From assembly GCA_965198675.1 (NCBI GenBank), contig OZ240666.1:2656666-2720665 (forward strand): a DNA stretch of 64,000 nucleotides, written 5' to 3'. The translations under genes and the position numbers were made by a program. How positions within the stretch are numbered: the stretch's first letter is position 1; every line of letters begins with the position of its first letter. Positions 2,018 to 59,369 of the stretch are shown here, in pieces. Origin of the DNA: Prochloron sp. Its GTDB lineage: Bacteria; Cyanobacteriota; Cyanobacteriia; Cyanobacteriales; Prochloraceae. The notes below the pieces were generated by a model. It saw nothing but the letters and a program-made list of their open reading frames with translations. It was not told where the DNA came from and did no database searches.

Positions 2018-3294
2018 CAGTTATCAGTTTCCAACATTTTTGCCCTCAAACAATTAGCAATGCGAGCAGCAGCTCCCGCTCCACCCATTCTTCGCCTTCC
2101 ATTAGCAGCAATTAACTCCACAGCTGCTGTATCCTTAAGGGTAGATTGAATGACACCAGCCACTTCATCTGGGTGGGTCACTAAAATGAGAGACGGTCCC
2201 AAAAGACGAGTTTGTGCTTCCGCAAAAGCGGGGGTAAATTGAGGTCCATTGCCGGGAATGGCGATCGCCAGTTTCCCCAAACCAACAAATTGCTCTGTGG
2301 CAGTTCCAGCCATGGCTATTGCTAAGTCAGCGGTTTGCAAACAATCTGAGTATACACTAGTGGTAACAAGCAGAATAGCATTATTCTGGGTAAATACTAA
2401 ACCATCCTTAGGCATTAAGGGAAGGGGTTGGGGTTTTTTCGGTTCCAATTCCCAGCCGGTGGTGAGCAAATGGCTGGTAAAAGGTTCCAGACTCAAACCG
2501 GGAGCGATCGCCGCTAAAAACAAAACTTCTTTAAAAGCAGCAATAACTCCCCTTGTGGCTCTAATTATCTTCTTCCAGTTATCTTCAGCTTCCGATGTCC
2601 GACTACCCGGTAGGAGCAGGATTTTGAGCCTTTTCCATCCCTCACTGTCCTTATTTACCCTATCCCCTGGAGCCAAACCATCCATCATGGGATTGCCCAA
2701 ATCGAAAGCCGGAATCCCTCGCTGCTGTAATATTTCTGTGGTCAGCTTATCTCTGGGGAAAACAGCCTTGCAGCGGTTCTGACTCATCAACCAACGCTCC
2801 CAAGGCAGGTACACAGAACCCAGAGCAGGCTCTAGCCTAGTAGTTGTGGGCAACCATCCCTCTTCATCTCGCCAATAATATTCCGATTTCGCCGTGGCCA
2901 CAAAAGCATAATCAGCCCTGGTGAGGGATGCAAATAATAAGGGTACTATATCTCCCACTGCCAGAATCGCCCCTTGTTGGTTGCGGCTCCAATGTAGCAC
3001 TGCCCGTAATTGAGCTAAAGTCAGCCTTATTAAACCCCCCTGCAAATCTCGCCATAACTGTCCCCCGTCCATATAAATAAAGCCCCCTGAAGGCATTTGC
3101 TGCACTGGGCCAATGATAGGAATGTTCAAATGACTATAGGCTCGCCCTTCTCCCACTATGGGCAATGCTGCCAGTTCTGGTGCATAGGGCTGTTGCAACA
3201 ACTGCTCCAAAATTCGCGCGGCAATTACATCTTCTCCATGACCGTTGCTGAGACACAATAGTTTCCCCCTCGACCTGATATTAGGTGGTATCAT
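2017..3294 (-). CDS. lipid-A-disaccharide synthase-related protein (cyanobacterial LpxB-like glycosyltransferase)
   Basis: 425-aa ORF. The N-terminus LLCLSNGHGEDVIAARILEQL and overall GT-B-like layout are typical of the cyanobacterial LpxB-related family. It is translationally coupled to the downstream DUF3754-like gene. Confidence 0.55.
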   Translation of the reverse strand: MIPPNIRSRGKLLCLSNGHGEDVIAARILEQLLQQPYAPELAALPIVGEGRAYSHLNIPIIGPVQQMPSGGFIYMDGGQLWRDLQGGLIRLTLAQLRAVLHWSRNQQGAILAVGDIVPLLFASLTRADYAFVATAKSEYYWRDEEGWLPTTTRLEPALGSVYLPWERWLMSQNRCKAVFPRDKLTTEILQQRGIPAFDLGNPMMDGLAPGDRVNKDSEGWKRLKILLLPGSRTSEAEDNWKKIIRATRGVIAAFKEVLFLAAIAPGLSLEPFTSHLLTTGWELEPKKPQPLPLMPKDGLVFTQNNAILLVTTSVYSDCLQTADLAIAMAGTATEQFVGLGKLAIAIPGNGPQFTPAFAEAQTRLLGPSLILVTHPDEVAGVIQSTLKDTAAVELIAANGRRRMGGAGAAARIANCLRAKMLETDN

Positions 3295-3306
3295 CTCTTG
3301 AAAAGA

Positions 3307-3594
3307 ATGATTACATTGGTTGTTATTTTTAATCTACTCATAACCCTAGTCAATTTGTTTTTCGCTTGGCGCATTTGGCAATTGGGGCGTTGGTTGGCTA
3401 ATCTAGCAGACACATTAACTAAAGTGGAGCGCAGCACTCATTCGGTGCTTTGTTTCGCTCCGGAAGTTATTCTCAAAGCAGAGAGAGGTGCGGGTCATCT
3501 CAGGGGGTACTATCGCCGAGCTTACGTACAAATGCAAAGAGGAAAGCAAGTTTTAACTCTTTTTAATCTAGGAATGAAAATAGTGAGGGGGTAA
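3307..3594 (+). CDS. small membrane protein, unknown function
   Basis: ORF with one N-terminal hydrophobic helix (ITLVVIFNLLITLVNLFFAW). It lies co-directionally upstream of the YtxH and DUF948-like genes. Confidence 0.35.
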   Translation: MITLVVIFNLLITLVNLFFAWRIWQLGRWLANLADTLTKVERSTHSVLCFAPEVILKAERGAGHLRGYYRRAYVQMQRGKQVLTLFNLGMKIVRG

Positions 3595-3694
3595 CAAATC
3601 AATATTCATCTGCTCCCGCCAAAGGCGGTTGCTTGCGCTTTGCTTGCGCTTTGCTTCGCAAACATCAGCGTTTATCTGCGGTTCAACAAAAAAA

Positions 3695-4039
3695 ATGTCC
3701 AAAACAAACAAAAAAGCTATATGGGGCGGAATATTTCTCGGAAGTGCTGTAGGTACCATAATTGGTATGTTAATTACCCCTCGTTCCGGTGGAGAAACGC
3801 GACAGGTGCTGAAAAAATCCGCTCGCGCCCTACCAGAGTTGGGATCTGACTTATCAAAAGGCGTCCAGTTGCAAGCAGCTCATCTCTCAGAATCAACACT
3901 GCGTAACTGGGAAGGCACCCTAACGCGACTGAAAGAAGCCATCGCCGCCGGAATTGAAGCCAGCAAGAAGAGTGCCCGTGAAATAAATCAGAGTTACGAG
4001 AAAATGACCGATGATTCTGATTCTACCAACAATAATTGA
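3695..4039 (+). CDS. YtxH domain-containing protein
   Basis: MSKTNKKAIWGGIFLGSAVGTIIGMLITPRSGGETRQVLKKSA.. is the classic YtxH N-terminal helix plus the PxSGxETR motif. I chose the start at the in-frame ATG at 3695. Confidence 0.7.
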   Translation: MSKTNKKAIWGGIFLGSAVGTIIGMLITPRSGGETRQVLKKSARALPELGSDLSKGVQLQAAHLSESTLRNWEGTLTRLKEAIAAGIEASKKSAREINQSYEKMTDDSDSTNNN

Positions 4040-4046
4040 TAAAAGA

Positions 4047-4478
4047 ATGGGAAGCGCCATCGATCCTCTATTTTGGCTGGGACTATCAATTCTGCTGGTG
4101 GCAGTAAGCTTGACAGCTGTCTTAATTGCCGCCCTACCTGCTTTCCACGAATTAGCCCGAGCTGCTCGCAGTGCGGAAAAATTGTTCGATACTCTCCAGC
4201 GGGAGTTTCCCCCTACTCTGGAAGCAATTCGTCTGACTGGTATGGAAATTAACGAACTGACTGAGGATCTCAATGAGGGGGTGAAGAGTGCCACGGGAGC
4301 AATTGAACAAGTGGATCGCTCCCTGAGCAGTGCCAGACAACAGGTGAAAAAGGTTCAAGTTGGCACCAAAAGCTTAGCCGCTGGAGTAAAAGCAGCTTGG
4401 CAAACGTGGAAACGTCCTGCAAGCAAAAATCGCTCCTTACGGCGTTTTCCCCTGAGAAAATCCTATGAAGAAAAATAG
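4047..4478 (+). CDS. DUF948-like membrane-anchored coiled-coil protein
   Basis: MGSAIDPLFWLGLSILLVAVSLTAVLIAALPAFHELARAARSAEKLFDTLQRE.. shows an N-terminal TM helix followed by a helical region, as in DUF948 proteins. It follows the YtxH gene. Confidence 0.55.
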   Translation: MGSAIDPLFWLGLSILLVAVSLTAVLIAALPAFHELARAARSAEKLFDTLQREFPPTLEAIRLTGMEINELTEDLNEGVKSATGAIEQVDRSLSSARQQVKKVQVGTKSLAAGVKAAWQTWKRPASKNRSLRRFPLRKSYEEK

Positions 4479-15994: not shown

Positions 15995-16219
15995 AGGGGA
16001 GATGGGGGTATGGGGTTCGGGGTATGGGATCGTCCGAACGGGCGACTGCTATACTATTATATGAGATAGGAACAACGCCCTTCGCCCATGCAGCGGCTTT
16101 GCGCGAACCCAACCTCAAGGATTATTTGGCGATCGCCCGTAGCCCCCCTCCTGGGAGGGGGGTTGGGGGGGTGGGTACAACCCCCCATCATACGCCCAAC
16201 TGTCATGGTACAAGGTCAC

Positions 16220-16514
16220 CTTTCAATTACCAGTGACCAGTAATCACGTACCATGGTAGCAGCTCAACCTTGGGTTTGAGGCCCCCACCTTTCAGTTACC
16301 AGTGACCAGTAATCACGTACCATGGTAGCAGCTCAACCTTGGGTTTGAGGCCCCCACCTTTCAGTTACCAGTGACCAGTAATCACGTATCATGGTAGCAG
16401 CTCAACCTTGGGTTTGAGGCCCCCACCTTTCAGTTACCAGTGACCTTGTACCATGACAGTGACCAGTAATCACGTACCATGGTAGCAGCTCAACCTTGGG
16501 TTTGAGGCCCCCAC
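16220..16514. repeat. 69-bp tandem repeat, four units (the fourth carries a 19-nt insertion)
   Basis: The unit is CTTTCAGTTACCAGTGACCAGTAATCACGTACCATGGTAGCAGCTCAACCTTGGGTTTGAGGCCCCCAC. Units lie at 16220, 16289, 16358 and 16427 (88 nt). A single copy occurs at 31339-31407. Confidence 0.9.
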
Positions 16515-16592
16515 CACTTATTTGGTGGCAAGCCACTTATTGGTGGAAGGTAACTGGTAACTGCCTGACTGCCCCGGTTGGCATGAGCAGGA

Positions 16593-16763
16593 CTGGTAAC
16601 TGGTAACTGGTAACTGGTAACTGGTAACTGGTAACTGGTAACTGGTAACTGGTAACTGGTAACTGGTAACTGGTAACTGGTAACTGGTAACTGGTAACTG
16701 GTAACTGGTAACTGGTAACTGGTAACTGGTAACTGGTAACTGGTAACTGGTAACTGGTAACTG
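16593..16763. repeat. heptamer array (CTGGTAA)n, about 24 units, STRR-like
   Basis: A perfect 7-nt periodicity is visible directly. The ORFs reading YQLPVTS here are translation artefacts. Confidence 0.95.
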
Positions 16764-20909: not shown

Positions 20910-21155
20910 CCACGTACCATGGTACCAGTGAAGTAATCCGTCTTTGGATCATGAGAGCACACTAAATTAACGACCACTGGTTACTGACAACTCTCCAGAA
21001 ACTTATAGTGCTCCTTTTGGGGAAGGGTAAAGGGTAAAGGGTTGCAAGCTTGCGGAAAATGTAAAAGAAGGCTTTTAGCAATTCTTTGATCTCATGTAAA
21101 CCTCACGGGAGTTTGGAAACCACCATTTTCAAATGGTGTCCGAAAAACGACACGA

Positions 21156-21776
21156 GCGCGCGCCATTAATCAATGCCGCGCGCAGTCCCCCGGCATTGAT
21201 TAATGGCGGGGGAGAGGGAAATTGTTATCTCCCTCAAAACTCCCATTGCTGGGGTAAAGTTAGCCGAGCTAACCCACCCCTACCCCCTCCCGGGAGGGGG
21301 AAAGGGGGTGGGTACTATCCCAAAAGCACTGTCTTACCCCGAGTAAAACTATTTAACCTTTGAGTTCTAGAGCTTGGAACTACCCACCCCCCGAGCAAGT
21401 CTCCTGGGAGGGGGGTTGGGGGGTGGGTAGGAACTTTAACTCTTGCCAATAACGTAGTCAGTTAAGTAGGATGCGTTAGCACACGTCTGGAGAAGTGTTT
21501 AAAGCTGACAGCTATGGCGTAACGCATCCTACAGCTGGTCAGCTAACTGAAGAGGAGGCACGAGAGCAACGCTACAAAGCGTGCGGGGTGCTGACCTCAA
21601 GACAGTCCCTTTGATCCACTCCCCCGGTTAAAACACGGGGGATTCGGGATTTAAGCAGCAACCCTTCGGGAAACCCCGTCTTACATTGCCTAGCCCACCC
21701 ACCCCCCGAGCCAAGCTCCCAGGAGGGGGGTTGGGGGGTGGGTTGCTCCCCTCCCAGGAGGGGATGGGGGTGGGTC
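21156..21776. repeat. cluster of at least seven miniature palindromic elements from three families
   Basis: CCATTAATCAATG-centred palindromes lie at 21156-21183 and 21187-21212. GGGTGGG...CCCGGG/CCAGG...CCCACCC palindromes lie at 21272-21313, 21382-21430, 21694-21743 and 21747-21776. A GTAGGATGCGTTAGC...GCGTAACGCATCCTAC hairpin lies at 21469-21535. Confidence 0.85.
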
Positions 21777-22055
21777 CAACCTTTTTGATTATACTACGGC
21801 TGAATAAATTCAGCTTGCGCTTATATCCCCCGATTAAAATACGGTTGCTCTATCGCTTTGCACCTCGTAAAAAACCACCCCACCCCCTACACCCCACCCA
21901 GTTTTTCATCTTTATTTTGGGGGCGTTCGCGTCCCTCGGGAGCTGGTAACTGATTCAAGGGAACCAATAAATTCGCTTAGGAGAATTATGAGAGAAGTAG
22001 CCCACTTTCTGCTAAAATCTTATAGAAACTTTAAAAAACGTTACCAAATTAATAA

Positions 22056-24164: not shown

Positions 24165-24755
24165 TTAGCTGTCGTAGGATGCGTTACTAGCCGTAAGTAG
24201 CAACAATACAAACTTTGTTGGCGTAACGCATCGTACGTAGCAGCATCCTAAATTAAATGGGTTAGCGTAACGCATCCTACGCGAAGCGGGATGGGGATGA
24301 ATAGCGCGGGAACTTCCTGGGTGATGCCCCCTAAGTTCCCAACTACGCTTTCGGGGCGTGCAAGAGATAGCTAAATACTGCCGTAGTTTCTCTATTGGTG
24401 CACCGCCAGTAGATGCTACGTAGTAGGAACCTGACCAAAACGAAACGCCGGAACGGTAAAACTCTTTGAGTTCTTTTTTATATTCCCGCTTCATGGTTCT
24501 GCTTGTGGCAGCTTTCAGAGAGCCAACGACCGCTGAGATTGAGTTCCTGGGGTGAAAGTCTACCAACAGGTGGACATGGTCAGACTCGCCGGAAAACTCA
24601 ACTAGCTTACACCCCATTTTCTTGCAGACCTGATTACACATGGATTCTATGCGGGTAAGCATTGAGGCATTGATGGCTTTTCTTCGATAATGTGTTACAA
24701 ATACAAAGTGCAGTAGCACACTAAAAACGCTGTGAGAACCTTTTCTGGGTTTCAT
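24165..24755 (-). CDS. tnpA: IS200/IS605 family transposase TnpA (Y1/HUH)
   Basis: The HUH motif (SDHVHLLVDF) and the catalytic Tyr region (WSGSYYVASTGGAPIEKLRQY) are both present. The core ends near aa 135. The remaining roughly 60 codons read through the element's left-end hairpins, so the true stop is uncertain. Confidence 0.7.
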   Translation of the reverse strand: MKPRKGSHSVFSVLLHFVFVTHYRRKAINASMLTRIESMCNQVCKKMGCKLVEFSGESDHVHLLVDFHPRNSISAVVGSLKAATSRTMKREYKKELKEFYRSGVSFWSGSYYVASTGGAPIEKLRQYLAISCTPRKRSWELRGHHPGSSRAIHPHPASRRMRYANPFNLGCCYVRCVTPTKFVLLLLTASNASYDS

Positions 24756-24784
24756 CTTGACAACCTACACTTCAACTGTTATAG

Positions 24785-26061
24785 TTGGATTATCCAACCC
24801 AAGAGGTCGTGATGCCAACCCGCAGAATAACCTACCGCCTATATCCAAGTGCTTCGGAGATTAAGCAGTTGCACATAGCCCGCAAGATGCATTGCGACCT
24901 ATATAATGCTGCCGTGGCTAATCGTAGGACTCAATATAAACGCTTTGGACATTCGGTAGATTATTTTGAGCAGCAAAACTCCCTACCCGCGTTTAAGGAG
25001 GTCTGGCCAGAATATAAAGAGTTAGGCTCTATGGCCCTTCAGGCGACTCTGAAGCGGGTTGATTTTGCTTATCAGCGGTTTTTTAAAGGCTTAGGAAAAT
25101 ACCCAAAATTCAAAGCCAAACGCCGTTATAGAGGATGGACTTACCCCAATAGTGCTGGTTGGAAAGTTAACCCCCGCCATTAATCAATGCCGGGGGTTAA
25201 CGGTCAGCTTGAGTTGAGGCATTTTAAGTTCGGCCCTATCTTTATTCCAATGCGGAGAAAGGCCCGAACTTGGGGCAAACCAACAACTTGTACGATAATT
25301 TGGAATAATAATAAATGGTACGCATCTATAACAGTTAATTGTGTTCCCGAAAGAGAAACCCACCCCCCTTCGCCCCCCTCCTGGGAGGGGGGTTGGGGGG
25401 TGGGTTGGTTTAGATTTTGGTTGTAAAGTAGCTATAGCTACATCAGATGGAGAGTTTATAGAAGCTCCAAAGTTTCAGGCAAAAGCAGCCCTGAAGGTCA
25501 AACAACTTTCTAAACAGTTGAGGCGAAAACGCCGACCAGAAAAGAGAAAAACTAGGGCTTCCCGGAGGTGGCGGAAGACTCAAACCCTAATTAGTAAAGT
25601 CCGACGTGATGTAGCCAATCAACGCCACGATTGGTCCCATAAGGTAGCAGCACAAATTGTACGCCGTAATAGCTTGGTTGCTACTGAGAAATTAACACCG
25701 AAGGTGCCGCCTTTGGCGTCCCTTAAGGGCATGACTCGTAAAGGAAAAGGAAAGAGAAAGCGCCCCTATTGCTGGGCTTAATCGGTCTTTATTAGATGTC
25801 GCAATTGGCATGACAAAAAATGTCATAAAGTACAAAGTACTCGAGGCAAAAGGTGTTTATTTAGAGGCACCGACACAAAAGTTAAAACCCACTCAACGAT
25901 GTGCTAAATGTTGGGACACTACCAAGAAAACATCTCGTTTACGTGTTCATGTTTGCCAACATTGTGGACATCAAGAAGATAGGGATGTAAATGCAGCTCA
26001 AGTGATGTTGGCTTGGGCTAGGGGTCAGGAACTGGCCTATGCCAGATGGGTCGCGGCGTAG
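24785..26061 (+). pseudogene. tnpB: TnpB (IS605 OrfB) RNA-guided nuclease family, disrupted at three or more points
   Basis: The pieces lie in frames 2, 2, 0 and 1. They include ..YRLYPSASEIKQLHIARKM.., ..VGLDFGCKVAIATSDGEFIEAPKF.. (RuvC-I) and ..CAKCWDTTKKTSRLRVHVCQHCGHQEDRDVNAAQ (zinc finger plus RuvC-III). Breaks coincide with small repeats at 25171-25196, 25359-25406 and about 25700-25790. Confidence 0.75.
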
Positions 26062-33048: not shown

Positions 33049-34449
33049 TCACTTGTCAAACTGTTCTGGAATAGGTTCTAGGGGTATGCCCAAAGCCTCT
33101 TGTTCTATTGGTGCTTCTCTAGGAGACTGTTCTGGAATAGGTTCTAGGGGTATACCCAAAGCTTCTTCTGGTTCTTGAGTTTCTTGGGCTTCTGTTGATA
33201 ATGGTGGAGATTCTGGGGGCGTTCCTGTTTCAGGTAAGGCTGCCCCTTCTTCTAATCCCGGAAGGGTCAAAGAGGGACAAATTTGCTGATTATAGGCAAA
33301 ATTAACACTTACCCGATAAGCTTTGGACTGATTCTTGTCATAATCGAATCTTCGAGTTAAAATGTCTTCCCTTGCCTGTTGATTAAAAATTCCATAACCT
33401 CCACTTCTGATTAAATCTAATTCTCTAATTTGTCCTTTTTCATCGACTAAAACTCCGTAAACAGTAGTACCTTCTAACTTGAGGGGACAAGCATCTTGAG
33501 GATAATTCCCCTCAATACTCAGATCAACAGAATCTACAATTTCAATCTTTGCCAACCAATTGGTGTAATTTTCCTGTTCTTCAGACGAAGTAGTATTGGT
33601 GAGGTCTAGAGTGAGATTGTTTGCCCTTGCTAAAATGTCGGCCCACAATTTTGACCTGTGAGATGGAAGATCGGCATTGTCAGATGAAGTCGAAGGTAGG
33701 GGCACGGCATTGCCGTGCCCATACAGGGTTGGAGTTGGTAGAACCACAATTTCTGGCTCGGTGGTCCTCTCTTGCGGTAATTGACTGGGGAGAAAATCTT
33801 CCGGCTTAATCGTTTCCCCTGTAATTGAAGGGGGTGGGTAGTTGTTGATATCCTCCGGACTCTGGCGCTCAGCTCTGATGCGAGGATCAATTATCACACC
33901 TTCCGATGAGCTGCTCTGTATTGCCAATTTCTTCTTTCTTTCCTCTTGCTCTGATCCTTCCGGGGCAATGGGAGGATTTGCGCCAGTTGGGATTTTTCTC
34001 GACTGTTGGGCGTAGGGGCACGGCATTGCCGTGCCCGTACAGGGCGATGGTTGAGGAGTAATGGCGGTCGGTGATTTTTTCTGGTTGGGAGGCAGAGATA
34101 AAATCTGCTGTACGCTCGCGTTCGTGGGAGTTGGCGGGACGACAGCCGATGACACCCTATTGAAGGAAGTTGGTCGGCGGACCGTATCAAACAAGAAAAT
34201 TCCAGTCTCTTGTGTTTTGGGAACAGCGGGAACCTTGGGGTAGGATTGAGAGAGGTTGGGGAGACGGTTTTGCTCAATGGATATCAGACGCACCGTTCTC
34301 TGAAGTCTTCTTTTTTCTGGTGACCGTATAAGGGGAACATCTGGAAAAGCAATTGCTACCAGACCGTGAATGCCCATGGACGCTAGCACTGCTATAGTTG
34401 TTGGTCTCATTTGTAGGCCTCGTTGGGTTAGGGTTTTCAGCCTGGACAT
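33049..34449 (-). CDS. proline-rich membrane-anchored protein with TonB-C-like domain
   Basis: It has an N-terminal TM helix (TTIAVLASMGIHGLVAIAF), a long Pro/Ser/Thr-rich linker, and a C-terminal compact domain (..GTTVYGVLVDEKGQIRELDLIRSGGYGIFNQQAREDI..YRVSVNF). The functional assignment is tentative. Confidence 0.4.
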   Translation of the reverse strand: MSRLKTLTQRGLQMRPTTIAVLASMGIHGLVAIAFPDVPLIRSPEKRRLQRTVRLISIEQNRLPNLSQSYPKVPAVPKTQETGIFLFDTVRRPTSFNRVSSAVVPPTPTNASVQQILSLPPNQKKSPTAITPQPSPCTGTAMPCPYAQQSRKIPTGANPPIAPEGSEQEERKKKLAIQSSSSEGVIIDPRIRAERQSPEDINNYPPPSITGETIKPEDFLPSQLPQERTTEPEIVVLPTPTLYGHGNAVPLPSTSSDNADLPSHRSKLWADILARANNLTLDLTNTTSSEEQENYTNWLAKIEIVDSVDLSIEGNYPQDACPLKLEGTTVYGVLVDEKGQIRELDLIRSGGYGIFNQQAREDILTRRFDYDKNQSKAYRVSVNFAYNQQICPSLTLPGLEEGAALPETGTPPESPPLSTEAQETQEPEEALGIPLEPIPEQSPREAPIEQEALGIPLEPIPEQFDK

Positions 34450-34465
34450 TAGTATCTATTTCATT

Positions 34466-35689
34466 TTAATTCCTCATTTGGACGGGCATTACCAAATAAG
34501 TCATCTTGATACTGCTTTCGGGCGTGAAAATCACTGGTCGATCGCCTTCATTTAGTTGCATTTTAATTTCATTAGCCCTGAGGGCTTTCAATCCATCCAT
34601 CAAGTATTTGATATTAAAGGCAATTTCTATACTTTCCCCAACGATCTGTGCTGACATTGACTGTTTTGCACTGCCCACGTCTTGAGTCTCTACAGAAAGG
34701 TCAAGTTCCTGCTTATCGCTATGGAGAGAAAATTTAACCGTATTATTCTTTTGATCTGCCAGCACTGCTACTAATTCTAAACCTCTGAGCAATTCCTTGC
34801 GCTCTAGGGTTATCTGGCGAGAAAATTGCTGGGGAATCAAGCGGCGATAATCGGGATATTGTCCTTCTAATTTTTGACTTCTCAAGTGGCGAGTGTCTAA
34901 GTCAAATACTACTTGACCCTCGTCTACTTTCAATTGAATGCACGCGCCTTCTTTCAGACTACCCAGCATTTGTTTGAGTTCTCGCAGCGCTCTTGCTGGA
35001 ATCGTCACTTCAAAGTCTTCCCTCCCGACCGACCCACCCCCTCGGTCCCCCTCCCGGGAGGGGGAAGGGGGTGGGTCACTCTCAGTCTCGACTGACCTTT
35101 CTTCAACTTCGGACGCTGCGGTTTGCACTACCGCCAAGCGATGAGAATCAGTTGCGGCAAATTCCAGTCCTGCTTCAGTTCTAGTTAAATGTACCCCTGT
35201 CAAAACTTGCTTAGTTTCGTCAGTGCTAGCAGCAAATAAAACCCCTCTCAGTCCATCAGTTAAAGCAGAAACCGGCAAGACAAGGGATTGACCGGCTTCA
35301 ACTGGGGGGAATTCCGGGTATTCCTCTACGTTTTTCTCTTGATTAATCTTAAACCGCCCCGCTCCAGTTGTCAAAGTTGCCCGTTCGTCTTCCAGTGCTT
35401 CTGGATCCGGTTCGTCCGAGATGGTAATTTCGGATTCTGGCAGCCGAGAAACAATGTCATTGAGGAGTTTAGCTGGCAGGGCGAGGGTACCGCTTTCTAT
35501 AACTGTCGCACTAAAGCTGGTGCGAATACCGAGGCTGAGATCGAAAGCAGTTAAGTCTAGCCGTCCCTTTTCTTCATCGGCTACTAACAAGACATTGCCC
35601 AGGACTGGATGAGTCGGACGAGAAGGAACTGCCCGACTAACTAAAGATAGATTGGTATTCAGTGTACTTTGAGTGCAAACTATTTTCAT
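34466..35689 (-). CDS. dnaN: DNA polymerase III subunit beta (sliding clamp), carrying a 16-codon repeat-derived insert
   Basis: MKIVCTQSTLNTNLSLVSRAVPSRPTHPVLGNVLL.., FEVTIPARALREL and the C-terminal YLVMPVQMRN are present. At 407 aa it is longer than usual because of DPPPSPSREGDRGGGS, encoded by the palindrome at 35031-35077. Confidence 0.92.
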   Translation of the reverse strand: MKIVCTQSTLNTNLSLVSRAVPSRPTHPVLGNVLLVADEEKGRLDLTAFDLSLGIRTSFSATVIESGTLALPAKLLNDIVSRLPESEITISDEPDPEALEDERATLTTGAGRFKINQEKNVEEYPEFPPVEAGQSLVLPVSALTDGLRGVLFAASTDETKQVLTGVHLTRTEAGLEFAATDSHRLAVVQTAASEVEERSVETESDPPPSPSREGDRGGGSVGREDFEVTIPARALRELKQMLGSLKEGACIQLKVDEGQVVFDLDTRHLRSQKLEGQYPDYRRLIPQQFSRQITLERKELLRGLELVAVLADQKNNTVKFSLHSDKQELDLSVETQDVGSAKQSMSAQIVGESIEIAFNIKYLMDGLKALRANEIKMQLNEGDRPVIFTPESSIKMTYLVMPVQMRN

Positions 35690-35773: not shown

Positions 35774-35886
35774 CTAACAACTAACAACCAAATTGCTCAA
35801 TTGACGCAATCTCTGATTCAAGGGTCTTTCTGCTGCATTTGAGCAATCTTTTCGCAGCTATACATGACTGTAGTGTGGTCTTTACC
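35774..35886 (-). pseudogene. dnaA: dnaA 3'-terminal stub (domain IV end only)
   Basis: My hand translation is GKDHTTVMYSCEKIAQMQQKDP* (35886-18). After a 1-nt shift it reads PLNQRLRQLSNLVVSC* (to 35774). GxDHTTV...C.KI is the hallmark of the DnaA C-terminus. The stub ends 85 nt upstream of dnaN. Confidence 0.6.
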
Positions 35887-36310: not shown

Positions 36311-36470
36311 AGCAACCGCCAGAGCGATTGATACACCCAAGTGACCCACCCCTCTGCTCCCCTCCCGGGAGGGGATGGGGGTGGGTAGGCTCGAAATGTT
36401 ATAACCCGCTTTCTGACTGCAATTCATTTACATATTACCTGGGAAACTCATAACTGGTAACTGCCTGACT
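36311..36470. repeat. about 165-bp dispersed MITE-like element, copy 1
   Basis: AGCAACCGCCAGAGCGATTGATACACCC..GTGACCCACCCCTCTGCTCCCCTCCCGGGAGGGGATGGGGGTGGGTAGGCTCGAAATGTTA...ACTCATAACTGGTAACTG is collinear with 52428-52597. Confidence 0.75.
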
Positions 36471-36602: not shown

Positions 36603-37589
36603 ATGACTTCCTTACCAGAAGTAATTGCCATAGACTTAGGGGGAACCGCCATCAAACTGGGACGGTTTTTGCAAGATGGCACTTGCTTATCCTCCTTCAC
36701 TGTACCCACTCCCCAACCATCTACTCCGGCAGCAGTCACCGAGGCGATCGCCCGAGAGGTAGGTCAACTGAATGCTGCCCAACGTTGTCTTGCCATCGGT
36801 ATCGGCACTCCCGGACCTGCTGATGCTGCTGGTAGAATTGCTAAAGTAGCTATTAACCTGGCAACCCCCCCCCTTAATCCCCCCCCTAGGGGGGATGACA
36901 AGGGGGGCAAGGGGGGATCATCCGCTTGGCATGAAGTTCCCCTAGCAGACTGGTTAGAATCTTTAACAGGACTCCCTACTATTATAGCTAACGATGCTAA
37001 TTGTGCTGGGTTGGGGGAAGCTTGGTTGGGAGCAGGACGCAAGTTTAAAAATCTTATTTTATTAACCCTGGGTACTGGTGTTGGCGGCGCGATTATTCTC
37101 GATGGCAAGTTATTTAGGGGTCATCTCGGTGCTGCTGGGGAATTGGGTTTGATTACTTTAAACCCCTCCGGACCCCCTTGTAATAGTGGCAATCAAGGTT
37201 CTTTAGAACAATATCTCTCTATTGGCGCTATTCGCCGCGCTACGGGCAAAGAACCAGCAGCATTGGGACAAATGGCAGCAGATGGATCGGTGGAAGCGTT
37301 GGCTTTTTGGCAGGACTATGGTAGGCTATTAGGTACTGGATTGGCCAGTCTGATTTACGTGCTGACACCAGAAGCAGTAATTATTGGCGGTGGTGTGAGT
37401 GCTAGCGCTGAGTTTTTTTTCCCTTCAACCAAAGCAGAAATAGAGCGACGAGTTTTACCTAGTTCTCGCCTTGATTTACAATTATTAAGAGCAGGGTTGG
37501 GCAATAGAGCGGGAATGGTAGGAGCTGCTAAATTAGCTTGGGCTTTGAGTTCTGGGAAGATAAAATATGATAGCTATTTACCCAGGTAG
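36603..37589 (+). CDS. ROK family sugar kinase (glucokinase-like) with a repeat-derived insert
   Basis: [16 protein letters not shown].., [17 protein letters not shown] and [15 protein letters not shown] are ROK motifs. The extra segment [20 protein letters not shown] is encoded by a GC-rich palindrome at about 36864-36917. Confidence 0.8.
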
Positions 37590-52427: not shown

Positions 52428-52597
52428 ATTATATAGCAGTCGCCAAGGCGATTGATACACCCAGGGTGACCCACCCCTCTGCTCTCCTCCCAGGAGGGGA
52501 TGGGGGTGGGTTAGCTCGAAACGTTAGAACCCTTACCTGTCAGCAATTTTCCAAGCATCCTACCTGTCAAACTCATAACTGGTAACTGGTCACTGGT
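52428..52597. repeat. about 165-bp dispersed MITE-like element, copy 2
   Basis: It is collinear with 36311-36470, including the internal GGGTGGG palindrome at 52468-52511 and the terminal ACTCATAACTGGTAACTGG. Confidence 0.75.
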
Positions 52598-55739: not shown

Positions 55740-56304
55740 TCTTTTTTGCTGCTTTTAAATTAAGCGCTGCATTTGACACTCCCACGGCTTCGCTATTGCG
55801 GTCATCTGTGGGATTCTCTAACTATCTAGCTGTGAGCTGTGCAACCTAGCGGGCACCATATCCCCAAGCGTATTTTTACCCTGTTTCCGAGTGCCCCTCG
55901 GTACAGCATTTGAAACCTAAAAATCAATGGTCGCTGGTAGTTCGGTACCCCCCCCCGTAGCCCCCTCCCGGTCTCCCCCTGGGGGGAGTAGAGGGGGGTT
56001 GGGGGGAGTAGAGGGGGGTTTCTCTCACGCCAAATCAAAGATTATGGCGTTCCGCTCCTGCCGCTTTAGCTAAAAGACCGCCCACCCTGGGGATTCAAGC
56101 CAGATATACGTTAGCATGAATGTTGAAATTGTGTCAAGATTTTTTTGACGGAGCAGCTCTAGCCGCACTGCGCTACATCCCACCCGCCCCGCTTGCGGCG
56201 CCCTTGGCACCAAAGAGGTGGGTTTTGCGCCCGATTCTATAAAAATATACATTGCTGAATGTTATACTCCCCAATAGGGAAATGGCAAACCCCTGTTGGG
56301 AGTC

Positions 56305-56740: not shown

Positions 56741-59369
56741 ATTAGAGTCGAGGGAGGTGTTACCACCTCGCCCCTCTCCTACGAACTGTACGTGAGACTT
56801 TCACCTCATACAGCTCAGGTATCTCTATGCCTTTACGGCGCGCTTTACGAGTCCGTCTTTAATTCTCTTCCGATGAATCGTCTGAGCTTGGTGACATTCC
56901 CTATGAAGAGCAACTAGATTTTTCATATCCCAGTTGTTGTGGTCCCCGTCTTTGTGGTGCAACTCCACCGGACCATCTATCTCCATGAACAATCGGTTGC
57001 AATGCGTACATTTCCCTTTCTGTCGCTTAATAGCTTTAGCGGTTGGTCCCTCATAAAGTTCAGAGTTCCGACCAACCCAATAGGCTATATTCCCATTGAA
57101 GGGTGAGGCACTACCTTTGACCATTACGTGACTATTCACTTCCCAGGAAACTTTAGGAAATGCTTTATCCACCTGCTCTTTCGTGAGCTGGCGCTTTGCT
57201 GCTCCCTTCTTCGCCTTCTTACCTTCAATGGCTTGACGACGCGCTTTTTCGGCCTCCTTTTGGTCTTGCCTGCGTTTATCTGCCCTTAGTTTGCGCCATA
57301 ACCATTGGCGCAGTGACCATAGAGCGTGTTTTGACATATCGCAGAATTTATGGTAATTCCTCCAGCCACGGACCTGTGTTCCTATTTTCTTTAGCCGAGC
57401 TTCTGTGCTCAACTCTTTGTTCTTCCAGGTTGCTTTAACTTTGGCCTTTATTTCCGCATAATTCTTTTGGCTCGGTGCGGATTTAAATGTTCCTCGTGAG
57501 TTGACGCGAAAACGCCATCCCAGAAAGTCAAATCCATCCGTAGCTCTCCTCATCTCAGTCTTATCTTCGTTTATTCTTAGCCCTCTGGACTTGAGAAATT
57601 CGTCTATATCTCGCCTCAGCTTTTTGGTATCAGCTTTTGATTTACAGATAAAGACCGCGTCATCCGCGTAACGTATACCCCTTATACTTTCAGATTTTGT
57701 AAACCCATTCTTTTTACCTTTGTGGTATTTTTGGGTTCTCGTAATTTGGTCTGACCCTAGGTTCTCGAATCCATCTAGGGCTATATTTGCCAGTAATGGG
57801 GATATCACTCCACCTTGCGGCGTGCCCTTCACACTAGAGGGGTATTCACCACGGACACCAGCTTTAACCGCAATTTTCAAACCTAGTTTGGCTTCAGTTG
57901 GTAAGATAACGCCTTTGAGTATGACTTTGTGGTCAATCTCGTCGAAGCATTTACTGATATCCGTCTCCAGAACCAGCTTATCCTTACCCTTAGCCTTGCT
58001 TTTTAGGTTGTCAAATATTAGCTTCTGTGCGTCCGCAGTACAGCGACCGGGTCTGAAGCCGTAGCTTCTTTCCCCGGCTATAGCTTCGTAAGCTGGCTCT
58101 GCTGCTAATTTAAGCAGCGCTTGCCATGCTCTGTCTGCTATTGTTGGTATGCCTAATCCTCGTGTTTTGCCGTTAGGCTTGGGGATGTTTACCCTTCTTA
58201 GTTGTTGGTGTCTCCAGTGGTACCAGTGCTTATTTAGCCTCTGACACAACACCAGACGCTCTCGTGTAGAGAGTGCAGTTTTTCCATCAACTCCGGGGGT
58301 CTTCTTCCCTTGATTCAGCTGTGTTACTTGTTTGACGGCCAAAGCTTGAGCTGCACGACTTCTCAATAGAAGCCGTTGTAAGAGTTTGACCTTAACTTTC
58401 TGATTGTATGCAAGCGCTTTGAAGATACTCCTCTGTAATCGAAAGACCTGACCCCGGAATCGCTTCCACGGCAAATCTTTCCAGACATCGTCAGCCTTCA
58501 GACTTATCTTTCTACCCCGCAGGAATACTGCAAGGTGAAGTTTTAAATCCTCTATGCTGCGGTATTCGATTGGGGCTACCTTAGTGCTTTGCACAGCTTA
58601 AGCTCCTTAATTCGCTCTGATAATTACATTGTGTGTCTTCTCTTTAGAAACCCTCGGGCAGTTACGCCCTCTCTTACCCTCGCTCTTCCGTTAGGCTGTT
58701 AATCAAGCAGCCCCACCACCTCACATGTTGGGCTTGGAATCCCCTGTTTTAGTCGAAGTCGAGCGAGTTTTTACTCGTTCCGAATGAACTATTGTTACGA
58801 ACCCTTGGGGACTCACCCTTTGACCCACTACCAACTCAGGAATGTAAGTGGCAAACACTTACCCTTACGAGTCTTTATTCGGTGTCTCTTCTGTCGTATA
58901 TAACGGCCTTCCGACAGTGTCGGAACTTAGGTCTTTTCTCAGATGATTCACGTTAAGTTATCCCTGTGTTCTCCCTATTAGCGGAAGTATCTCTACCTAA
59001 CCGTTCGGTCGCACTTTACCGCCCTGTTGCCAGCTTCAGCCTGGTGATTAACCTCTCTGTGGCCAGATAAGGATTCACGCGATTCCCACGCGGGAGAGAC
59101 TTGGTTTCACGATTCCTGACCGTGTCCTCACTCTCATAATTCATTCAGTTGTCATGGTTCGGTAATCACTGCCTTAGAGTTTCGGAGTTCCACTTTAGTT
59201 CTCCTAATTTCCCTCGCATTTCCCTTGCGGGTCTAGCGCTCAGGTAGTGACTCAGAGTTCTGTTTTTCAGCCCCTTTCGGTGGCTTAGATTAACAGTCCC
59301 GATGTCCCAAAACCAAGCCCCTGCTTATGTTTGGCTTACGCCTCAGCTTTCACAGGGAACGAGCCGCAC
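56741..59369 (-). mobile_element. group II intron (about 2.63 kb) with RT/maturase/HNH ORF in domain IV
   Basis: The 5' end GTGCGG lies at 59369. Domain V, GAGCTGTATGAGGTGAAAGTCTCACGTACAGTTC, lies at 56816-56783, 9 nt after the ORF stop. A domain VI-like hairpin with a bulged A follows, and the putative 3' end ..CTCTAAT lies at about 56741 (plus or minus a few nt). Confidence 0.8.
56825..58594 (-). CDS. group II intron reverse transcriptase/maturase with C-terminal HNH endonuclease domain
   Basis: It has RT motifs (..TPQGGVISPLLANIALD.., RGIRYADDAVFIC), a maturase X region and an HNH domain (C.HCN..ELHHKDGDHNNWDMKNLVALHRECH). It starts with GTG. Confidence 0.9.
   Translation of the reverse strand: MQSTKVAPIEYRSIEDLKLHLAVFLRGRKISLKADDVWKDLPWKRFRGQVFRLQRSIFKALAYNQKVKVKLLQRLLLRSRAAQALAVKQVTQLNQGKKTPGVDGKTALSTRERLVLCQRLNKHWYHWRHQQLRRVNIPKPNGKTRGLGIPTIADRAWQALLKLAAEPAYEAIAGERSYGFRPGRCTADAQKLIFDNLKSKAKGKDKLVLETDISKCFDEIDHKVILKGVILPTEAKLGLKIAVKAGVRGEYPSSVKGTPQGGVISPLLANIALDGFENLGSDQITRTQKYHKGKKNGFTKSESIRGIRYADDAVFICKSKADTKKLRRDIDEFLKSRGLRINEDKTEMRRATDGFDFLGWRFRVNSRGTFKSAPSQKNYAEIKAKVKATWKNKELSTEARLKKIGTQVRGWRNYHKFCDMSKHALWSLRQWLWRKLRADKRRQDQKEAEKARRQAIEGKKAKKGAAKRQLTKEQVDKAFPKVSWEVNSHVMVKGSASPFNGNIAYWVGRNSELYEGPTAKAIKRQKGKCTHCNRLFMEIDGPVELHHKDGDHNNWDMKNLVALHRECHQAQTIHRKRIKDGLVKRAVKA

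Follow-up and report, generated by a model that had tools for sequence, protein, structure and literature searches.

A probable REP-like palindromic repeat tolerated in frame within the sliding-clamp gene dnaN of a relative of Candidatus Paraprochloron terpiosi

The 64,000-nt stretch of Prochloron sp. DNA analysed here (hereafter the window; GenBank assembly GCA_965198675.1, contig OZ240666.1, positions 2,656,666 to 2,720,665 of the forward strand) comes from a relative of the sponge symbiont Candidatus Paraprochloron terpiosi and carries, inside the essential DNA polymerase III beta sliding-clamp gene dnaN, a 47-nt GC-rich imperfect palindrome at 35031-35077, GACCCACCCCCTCGGTCCCCCTCCCGGGAGGGGGAAGGGGGTGGGTC. 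This segment is very probably a selfish repeat, similar in kind to repetitive extragenic palindromes (REPs) and to the Rickettsia palindromic elements (RPEs), that is translated and tolerated within the clamp. According to this explanation, a non-autonomous miniature palindromic repeat would have entered dnaN once, in an ancestor within the Paraprochloron clade, displacing 15 nt of a loop-coding stretch with a net gain of 33 nt, and would now be translated as a coil of 16 residues rich in proline, glycine, serine and arginine. The insert would have survived because it alters the length by a net multiple of three, because it is free of stops in any frame and because it fell in a disordered, length-variable link of domain II; it would be a passenger that the clamp tolerates rather than a functional module. 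The filled allele would have come to be present in lineages 7% apart in dnaN probably through homologous recombination between co-occurring lineages, and the palindrome is also unstable, since the central 30 nt have been lost in one relative, where the frame is likewise kept.

Both the palindrome and its location inside dnaN had been proposed in a first-pass annotation made from the sequence alone, and the exact string was confirmed at 35031-35077, where it occurs once in the window, as was the identity of the host open reading frame (ORF). No match to the 47-nt string was found in dinucleotide shuffles, and its 14-nt core (CCCTCCCGGGAGGG, up to two mismatches) occurred eight times in comparison with 0.3 expected. 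The element has a GC content of 79% (vs. 45% for the window), folds as DNA into a two-tier 20-bp hairpin (−22.9 kcal/mol, z=−4.6) and forms a hairpin within the dnaN mRNA at −48.8 kcal/mol (z=−3.7). Its ends read GACCCAC.../...GTGGGTC, the tetranucleotide tags GTAG and CGTC being absent, its G-rich arm (GGGAGGGGnnGGGGGTGGG) fits the G-quadruplex consensus, and no match to the Rfam covariance models was obtained at this site of the window at the gathering threshold. The translated strand is the minus strand, and the orientation of the copy within its family, judged by an asymmetric bulge, is plus. Read on the minus strand, the 16 codons at 35030-35077 give DPPPSPSREGDRGGGS, residues 205-220 of DnaN, which are preceded by ..VETES and followed by VGREDFEV. 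Thus, the 16 codons described in the first-pass annotation stand, but the lack of stops on which it remarked carries no weight alone, because the element contains no stop codon in any of the six frames and, therefore, only the net length matters.

The host ORF (34466-35689, minus strand) is intact and encodes 407 aa matching all three Pfam beta-clamp domains (PF00712, PF02767 and PF02768), with a score of 346.7 bits on the equivalog-level model TIGR00663 (cut-off 137.65). Solved PDB clamps match the protein with E values down to 2e−43, and they have no counterpart for query residues ~194-223. Moreover, dN/dS ratios of 0.26-0.31 were obtained for dnaN when Paraprochloron lineages were compared with one another, and of 0.14 when they were compared with Prochloron, and these values of 0.14-0.31 indicate, at the sequence level, a working gene under purifying selection.

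The repeat family was defined independently of the window. JGI metagenome contigs were scanned for CTCCYRGGAGGGG-N(1-6)-GGGGGTGGGT, with at least 120 contigs matching, and a hidden Markov model (HMM) was built from 14 copies, all of them on metagenome contigs, the window copies being left out to avoid circularity (nhmmer). This model matched the dnaN copy at 35032-35076 from end to end (model positions 1-44, 27.7 bits, E=1.7e−7), in agreement with the earlier assignment of the segment to an intergenic family, and it also matched eight further window loci (36344, 52469, 21272, 21743, 25358, 16136-16176, 21697 and 21382). Of the copies listed in the first-pass annotation, those at 16141, 21272, 21382, 21694, 36343 and 52468 belong to the family, but the one at 55948 is no more than distantly related to it (E=0.05). 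The common architecture consists of ACCCACCCC(C), a short bulge, CCCCTCC-YRG-GGAGGGG, 2-4 nt and GGGGGTGGGT; the stems were almost invariant over 41 distinct copies, with variation limited to the loop and the bulge. All the other window copies lie on the plus strand: one with a variant left arm (CCCGTAGCCCCCC) at 16136-16176, one at 21272-21313 in the repeat-swollen spacer between aroC and NmrA, one at 21382-21428, a full copy (21697-21743) abutting a single-arm copy (21743-21775) at 21697-21775, a 48-nt copy at 25358-25405 at the junction between frames 2 and 3 of a degraded tnpB, one at 36344-36386 in the spacer between dnaN and an ROK-family gene, and one at 52469-52511 upstream of a ParA-like gene. 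The motif CGTAGCC was present only in the variants at 16136 and 55948. The copies at 36344 and 52469 share a 160-nt repeat, and all the others are similar only within the 42-48-nt element. Every window copy is intergenic except those in dnaN and in the dead tnpB and, since 82% of the related LD05 genome is reported to be coding (PMC9298193), this distribution implies either counter-selection within genes or a targeting preference. The intergenic copies are 33-48 nt long, and multiples of three are not preferred among them. An ordinary lineage-specific expansion of the loop, an assembly artefact or a dnaN pseudogene, with a chance resemblance to the repeats, can hardly account for these data: the loop is indeed prone to indels, and one relative (L004) shows here an expansion by 33 nt of unrelated sequence, but the match of the independent HMM, the occurrence of the same sequence in separate assemblies (the window, SP5CPC1 and AGAR17-1) and the intact, equivalog-scoring ORF under purifying selection already contradict this view.

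Orthologues of dnaN were then compared for the presence or absence of the segment in SP5CPC1 (L006), AGAR17-1 (L206), an assembly from ENA (ERZ22157276, L001), LD05 (L002/L007), two further relatives (L003 and L004) and Prochloron didemni, whose dnaN served as the outgroup (76% identity). On the coding strand, the full element appears as GAGAGT GACCCACCCCCTTCCCCCTCCCGGGAGGGGGACCGAGGGGGTGGGTC GG.. in the window, SP5CPC1 and AGAR17-1, the last two having identical dnaN genes, and as a derivative without the central 30 nt, GAGAGT GACCCACCCC^GTGGGTC GG.., in L001. The element is absent from LD05 and L003, which read GAGAGT AATAATGGGGATACC GGGGGG.., from L004, where empty-type ends accompany the 33-nt expansion, and from Prochloron didemni, where the loop is short. 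A clean 48-nt insertion, as implied in the first-pass annotation, was not what this comparison revealed: 48 nt of the filled allele stand for 15 nt of the empty one, the net difference being 33 nt or 11 codons (407 vs. 396 aa), and no target-site duplication was seen between the two alleles. All the length changes of the loop (+33, −30 and 33 nt) are divisible by three, in line with the need of a working gene to keep its frame. Furthermore, the junctions were the same in all the filled alleles and therefore point to a single insertion event, and the empty allele can be taken from the alignment as ancestral, and the filled one as derived, because the empty-site sequence AATAAT...GGATACC is common to LD05 and to the outgroup-like L004 (93%).

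Outside the loop, the dnaN genes of L006, L001 and LD05 were 98.0-99.2% identical to each other, while those of the window and of L004 were each ~93% identical to this group. In particular, LD05 and SP5CPC1 shared 98.7-99.2% identity in dnaN despite a published average nucleotide identity (ANI) between their genomes of 93.18% (PMC9298193), from which recombination is seen, at the sequence level, to move dnaN segments between Paraprochloron lineages. Recombination within the gene is likewise indicated by the sequence of the L001 dnaN (3001-4194), since it is mostly LD05-like and its 3′ end is window-like (ESSIKMTYL vs. LGGIKMTYL); it is also window-like just downstream of the element (GGTCGGG). 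All 47 nt were identical between the window and L006, with ~93% identity in the flanking dnaN sequence. There is, accordingly, a real though minor chance that the window lineage received its filled loop allele by homologous recombination from another Paraprochloron, which would alter the history of the insert and not its nature. The 100% identity of the element between the window and L006/L206, the mosaic structure of L001 and the disparity between dnaN identity and ANI in LD05 and SP5CPC1 speak for such a transfer. However, the flanks adjoining the window element carry window-type single-nucleotide polymorphisms (four differences in the 70 nt upstream), so the conversion tract would have been scarcely longer than the element itself, and ancestral polymorphism fits the data equally well.

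The place occupied by the insert was located in an AlphaFold2 model of the window DnaN (mean predicted local distance difference test, pLDDT, of 77.5). Residues 190-225 (35015-35122, minus strand) form a coil of domain II with pLDDT <50 between the strands 184-189 and 226-231, and in the model this insert-bearing coil connects one beta-alpha-beta-beta-beta half of the domain with the other. In 114 cyanobacterial DnaN proteins, the corresponding loop between the conserved RLA and TIPARA motifs was usually acidic and ranged from 14 to 52 residues (median 28), the 42 residues of the window DnaN falling inside this range. Because the loop varies so much in length across cyanobacteria, the site is, as far as the model and the census tell, naturally permissive, and the surface-loop position suggested in the first-pass annotation agrees with the mapping. 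With 52 aa, the loop of a DnaN from the Xenococcaceae (P0011) was the longest of all those surveyed, and it contains ..RPFQNSDFRILNS.., a stretch that looks like translated cyanobacterial heptamer repeats; the loop may thus have absorbed other types of repeats in other lineages.

Two other readings concern what the insert does within this loop. It is improbable that the insert has been co-opted, either as an mRNA or DNA structure tuning the expression or replication of dnaN or as a partner-binding loop in a genome devoid of dnaA. The strong mRNA hairpin (−48.8 kcal/mol), the G-quadruplex consensus of the G-rich arm and the perfect conservation of the element between lineages 7% apart would favour such a role. 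The loop also starts, by reference to the Escherichia coli clamp structure, ~6 residues after the conserved HRL motif, which lines the partner-binding cleft. A further point in its favour is that the clade lacks dnaA (PMC9298193). However, LD05 and L003 do without the element at 99% identity, L001 has lost its centre, the family turns up in unrelated proteins and there in loops that are likewise unrelated, the DnaN loop is naturally hypervariable, and the nine copies in 64 kb, mostly intergenic, behave as generic repeats. Even less credible is that the segment is not translated, by means of a ribosome bypass like that of the yeast-mitochondrial 'byp' GC-cluster elements or through its removal from the mRNA. 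Within a coding region, a 20-bp GC hairpin could plausibly obstruct the ribosome, but no bypass is needed, given a net change of exactly 33 nt and a sequence free of stops; moreover, the L001 derivative keeps the frame after its 30-nt loss, and neither a take-off/landing codon pair nor intron-like features were seen at the segment. A translated and tolerated repeat is consequently the preferred explanation.

As for how the repeat moved, filled and empty sites could be compared in three cases, and all three (3/3) showed replacement without direct repeats: 15 nt at dnaN, 5 nt in the adjacent ROK gene (a palindrome of another family) and 53 nt at 16136. In the last of these, 39 nt of element stand in the window for 53 unrelated nt in the relative L209 (4005-4256), between the conserved flanks GGCGATCGCCCGT ... 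ACCCCCCATCATACG; the 53-nt stretch of L209 ends in CACCCACCCCCC, which resembles an element arm. The copies of the aroC-NmrA spacer are too nested for their junctions to be resolved. Since replacement occurred without duplication, the junction sequences argue against the DDE-type transposition of a miniature transposable element with inverted repeats (MITE). They are compatible with single-strand hairpin transposition of the HUH/Y1 kind followed by deletion, or with copying from an ectopic repeat into a repaired break, and our best guess is that the repeat would be mobilised by hairpin transposition or repair-templated copying, with the enzyme acting in trans. The only Y1 transposase of the window (24165-24755) is of the IS200/IS605 type (NF033573, 126.9 bits), and it scored 21.9 on the model of the REP-associated tyrosine transposases (RAYTs; NF047646), for which the cut-off is 80; nothing ties this enzyme to the repeat family. 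A phmmer search with this TnpA against all the ORFs of 120 metagenome loci gave no match, although RAYTs could escape such a search. No longer element bounded by family arms was found in the metagenome loci; the only pair of arms at a distance typical of an insertion sequence (IS), 1457 nt apart on L141, was rejected as an autonomous parent, as it encloses an ABC-2 permease gene and not a transposase.

Several observations weigh against the preferred explanation. The 15 nt missing at the dnaN site and the lack of a target duplication mean that simple transposition is not demonstrated, and a cognate transposase was found neither in the window nor in the neighbourhood of the copies over 653 kb of metagenome loci. 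Moreover, the window and L006 have the 47 nt in identical form while the flanks differ by ~6-7% (P about 0.05 under neutrality), which could reflect either constraint on the element or a transfer more recent than the gene tree suggests. The near-invariance of the stems makes covariation uninformative on selection for structure and, finally, we infer rather than observe that the peptide is made and that the insert is neutral.

The comparison with Rickettsia drawn in the first-pass annotation was supported, as the repeat lies in frame in an intact ORF, is absent from close orthologues and occupies a permissive loop. In-frame palindromic repeats within genes are established for the RPEs of Rickettsia (Ogata et al. 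2000, as reviewed in PMC10969869 and PMC3184786), with which the dnaN family has in common dispersed palindromes in a host-associated bacterium, present both in intergenic DNA and in frame in housekeeping genes, absent from orthologues and placed where the fold tolerates them. In contrast, RPEs are ~100-150 bp long, form Rickettsia-specific families and encode a conserved peptide module, while the members of the dnaN family have 42-48 nt, are open in six frames, show an unrelated architecture and reside in a cyanobacterium; with 47 nt, the dnaN element falls outside the families RPE-1 to RPE-10 on length. The intragenic REPs of the GTAG/CGTC super-families (20-40 nt) are also mostly extragenic palindromes with a subset lying in frame inside ORFs, and inverted doublets of them exist (Di Nocera et al. 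2013, PMC3733652). They are enriched in genes of DNA synthesis and repair (DnaE, DnaE2, UvrA/B/D, PolA and RecBCD; PMC3733652), and therefore the remark in the first-pass annotation that such insertions are rarely documented is fair for dnaN and for cyanobacteria, but palindromes in replication and repair genes had already been published, though not in dnaN, which is absent from the decorated genes listed in that paper. The dnaN element differs from them in having a conserved end of ACCCACCCC / GGGGTGGGT and no GTAG or CGTC tetranucleotide at its ends, which sets it apart from these super-families, and the peptides encoded by the REPs of O. terrae differ as well.

Regarding REPINs, the REP doublets associated with RAYTs (Bertels and Rainey 2011, PMC3116915), the family is alike in occurring as singlets, as ~85-nt inverted doublets and as collapsed 44-nt forms in metagenome relatives, but no flanking RAYT was found in the window; the doublet arrangement was present in the metagenomes, among the matches listed, and not in the window. 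Cyanobacterial MITEs (Nezha and those of Microcystis and Anabaena; PMC3184786) are likewise small, non-autonomous and abundant hairpin repeats, sometimes fused with ORFs. However, they exceed 100 bp and possess the terminal inverted repeats of a parent IS as well as target-site duplications; no such duplication was seen in the three comparisons (3/3) and no parent IS was found, which places the dnaN element outside this class. The small dispersed repeats (SDRs) of Nostoc, said to have been described by Elhai et al. in 2008 in Nostocales, are reportedly hairpin-forming mobile repeats of 21-27 nt, often nested and located in heptamer arrays; heptamer arrays also adjoin window copies, but size and sequence are different. 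The GC clusters of yeast mitochondrial genomes are likewise short palindromes of high GC content, which spread through a genome richer in AT and can be found in frame within coding sequence. These clusters (mentioned in PMC8811140) are organellar and unrelated in sequence, and serve as an analogy only. Full-text searches of the literature for the encoded peptides, and for GGGGTGGGT together with cyanobacteria, returned nothing relevant, and the Paraprochloron genome paper makes no mention of palindromic repeats (PMC9298193). The repeat family itself may be undescribed.

Among the matches listed, the metagenome contigs carrying the family had 34-66% GC and came from soils, sediments, mats and sludge, and 63 of the ~140 hits were inverted doublets of ~85 nt, compared with none in the window. 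Three forms were distinguished, namely a short element of 40-48 nt, the ~85-nt inverted doublet with two inner hairpins and a single hairpin-plus-tail; Rfam searches of ten metagenome loci gave only sub-threshold noise from microRNA-hairpin models. Again among the matches listed, 33 open frames of at least 250 codons ran through a copy, and Pfam supported 20 of the 30 tested. On at least 18 metagenome contigs, the family lay in frame within genes that have Pfam support, the hosts including MetH, an RND pump, COX15, a type IIG restriction-modification enzyme, a group II intron reverse transcriptase and several TnpB proteins, and two diverged orthologues of GT4 glycosyltransferases carried the element at the same site. 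In particular, a gene for the error-prone polymerase DnaE2 (L106, 1-3456; WNFU01030325.1) contained an in-frame 85-nt doublet within a variable loop that follows the PHP domain; its nearest named homologues are verrucomicrobial, and the homologues lack the encoded segment NPPTPDPSQEGSRRSCAPQQFPSWEGSGVGS. The same DnaE2 has a second repeat-like insertion rich in proline, glycine and glutamate near residue 950. In several otherwise intact TnpB genes on low-GC metagenome contigs (L096, L117, L143, L188 and L197), the short element lies in frame (..NHNPPPSPPGRGARGVGAD..) between the OrfB_IS605 (RuvC) and the zinc-finger TNB domains, so that copies of the repeat may hitch-hike on elements of the IS200/IS605 family. 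A broader interpretation, which we regard as speculative, is that the dnaN insert would be the cyanobacterial face of an unnamed cross-phylum super-family of hairpin repeats, a third 'tag' class next to the GTAG and CGTC REPs, with its own mobilising enzyme, replacement-type integration free of target duplication and an unusual tendency towards in-frame fixation in proteins, including in the replisome (DnaN, and DnaE2 in Verrucomicrobiota). Its unit, in which the tail ACCCACCCCC precedes the hairpin CCCCTCC-YRG-GGAGGGG, would occur as singlets, ~85-nt inverted doublets and collapsed 44-nt forms.

Other palindromes were found in the genes next to dnaN. The adjacent ROK-family kinase gene (36603-37589, plus strand) contains a translated, in-frame C-run/G-run palindrome of another family at 36862-36926, where 65 nt replace 5 nt (CTGAT) with a net gain of 60 nt; it is absent from L001, L003 and Prochloron (L005). 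Furthermore, a TonB-like gene (33049-34449, minus strand) has two in-frame copies of a GTAG-type REP at 33696-33724 and 34012-34040 (GTAGGGGCACGGCAxTGCCGTGCCCxTAC), which neither L003 nor L004 possesses and whose encoded peptides are GTAMPCPY and LYGHGNAVP; the first of these peptides may be compared with the published GTASPCPY (PMC3733652). In the L001 orthologue, one of the REP copies keeps an in-frame TAG that splits the gene, while the window has TAT at this codon, as if the stop had been repaired. Just upstream of dnaN, a 21-aa remnant of the DnaA C-terminus was detected (35824-35886, minus strand; 86% identical to residues 408-428 of Prochloron DnaA), which fits the published loss of dnaA in Paraprochloron (PMC9298193). 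At this position, dnaA is full in Prochloron (L005), and a 99-aa C-terminal fragment is left in L004.

Regarding the copy at 25358-25405, the tnpB remnant is composed of pieces in frames 2, 3 and 1, the copy lying at the first frame change, and a second palindrome (25166-25201) is found next to it; the remnant also has a second frame change. The first-pass annotation held that the family frameshifts tnpB at 25359; the copy does sit at a frame change, but the shift is not attributable to it, because its 48 nt are a multiple of three and the gene has further lesions, and for the same reasons it was discarded as the sole cause. This remnant is part of an IS200/IS605-type element (24165-26010) with an intact Y1 tnpA (24165-24755, minus strand) and the divergent, degraded tnpB. 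The whole element is missing where the region is syntenic in L209 and LD05. The aroC-NmrA spacer (20910-22055) measures 1146 nt, compared with 395 nt in L209 and 30 nt in LD05, and holds nested repeats, including four or five family copies, the palindrome CGCCATTAATCAATGCCG, which also occurs in tnpB, and the direct repeat CTCAAGACAGTCCCT. The copy at 16136 is adjoined by a 69-nt tandem repeat of 3.3 copies (16217-16445) and has nearby a perfect heptamer array of ACTGGTA (24.6 units, 16592-16763), the repeats of 16217-16763 being absent from the syntenic L209 spacer. Lastly, a group II intron was located at 56741-58594 (minus strand), with a domain V/VI matching RF00029 (56741-56818) and an ORF (56825-58594) encoding a 589-aa reverse transcriptase/maturase, consistent with the 50 reverse transcriptase genes reported for LD05.

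The sliding clamp is usually regarded as highly constrained, and the loci of L006, L001 and LD05, 98-99% identical, offer a natural series of insertion, partial deletion and empty site that marks a permissive place within it. These natural alleles constitute a ready-made experiment on how far a replisome ring tolerates a foreign, hairpin-encoded peptide. For annotation, the odd loops rich in proline and glycine in these genomes, those of DnaN, the ROK kinase and the TonB-like protein, are to be read as derived from repeats and not as functional motifs. Overall, the colonisation of proteins by repeats in the manner of Rickettsia is extended to a cyanobacterial sponge symbiont, and the broad metagenomic spread of the repeats, with many in-frame copies, suggests an undescribed family.

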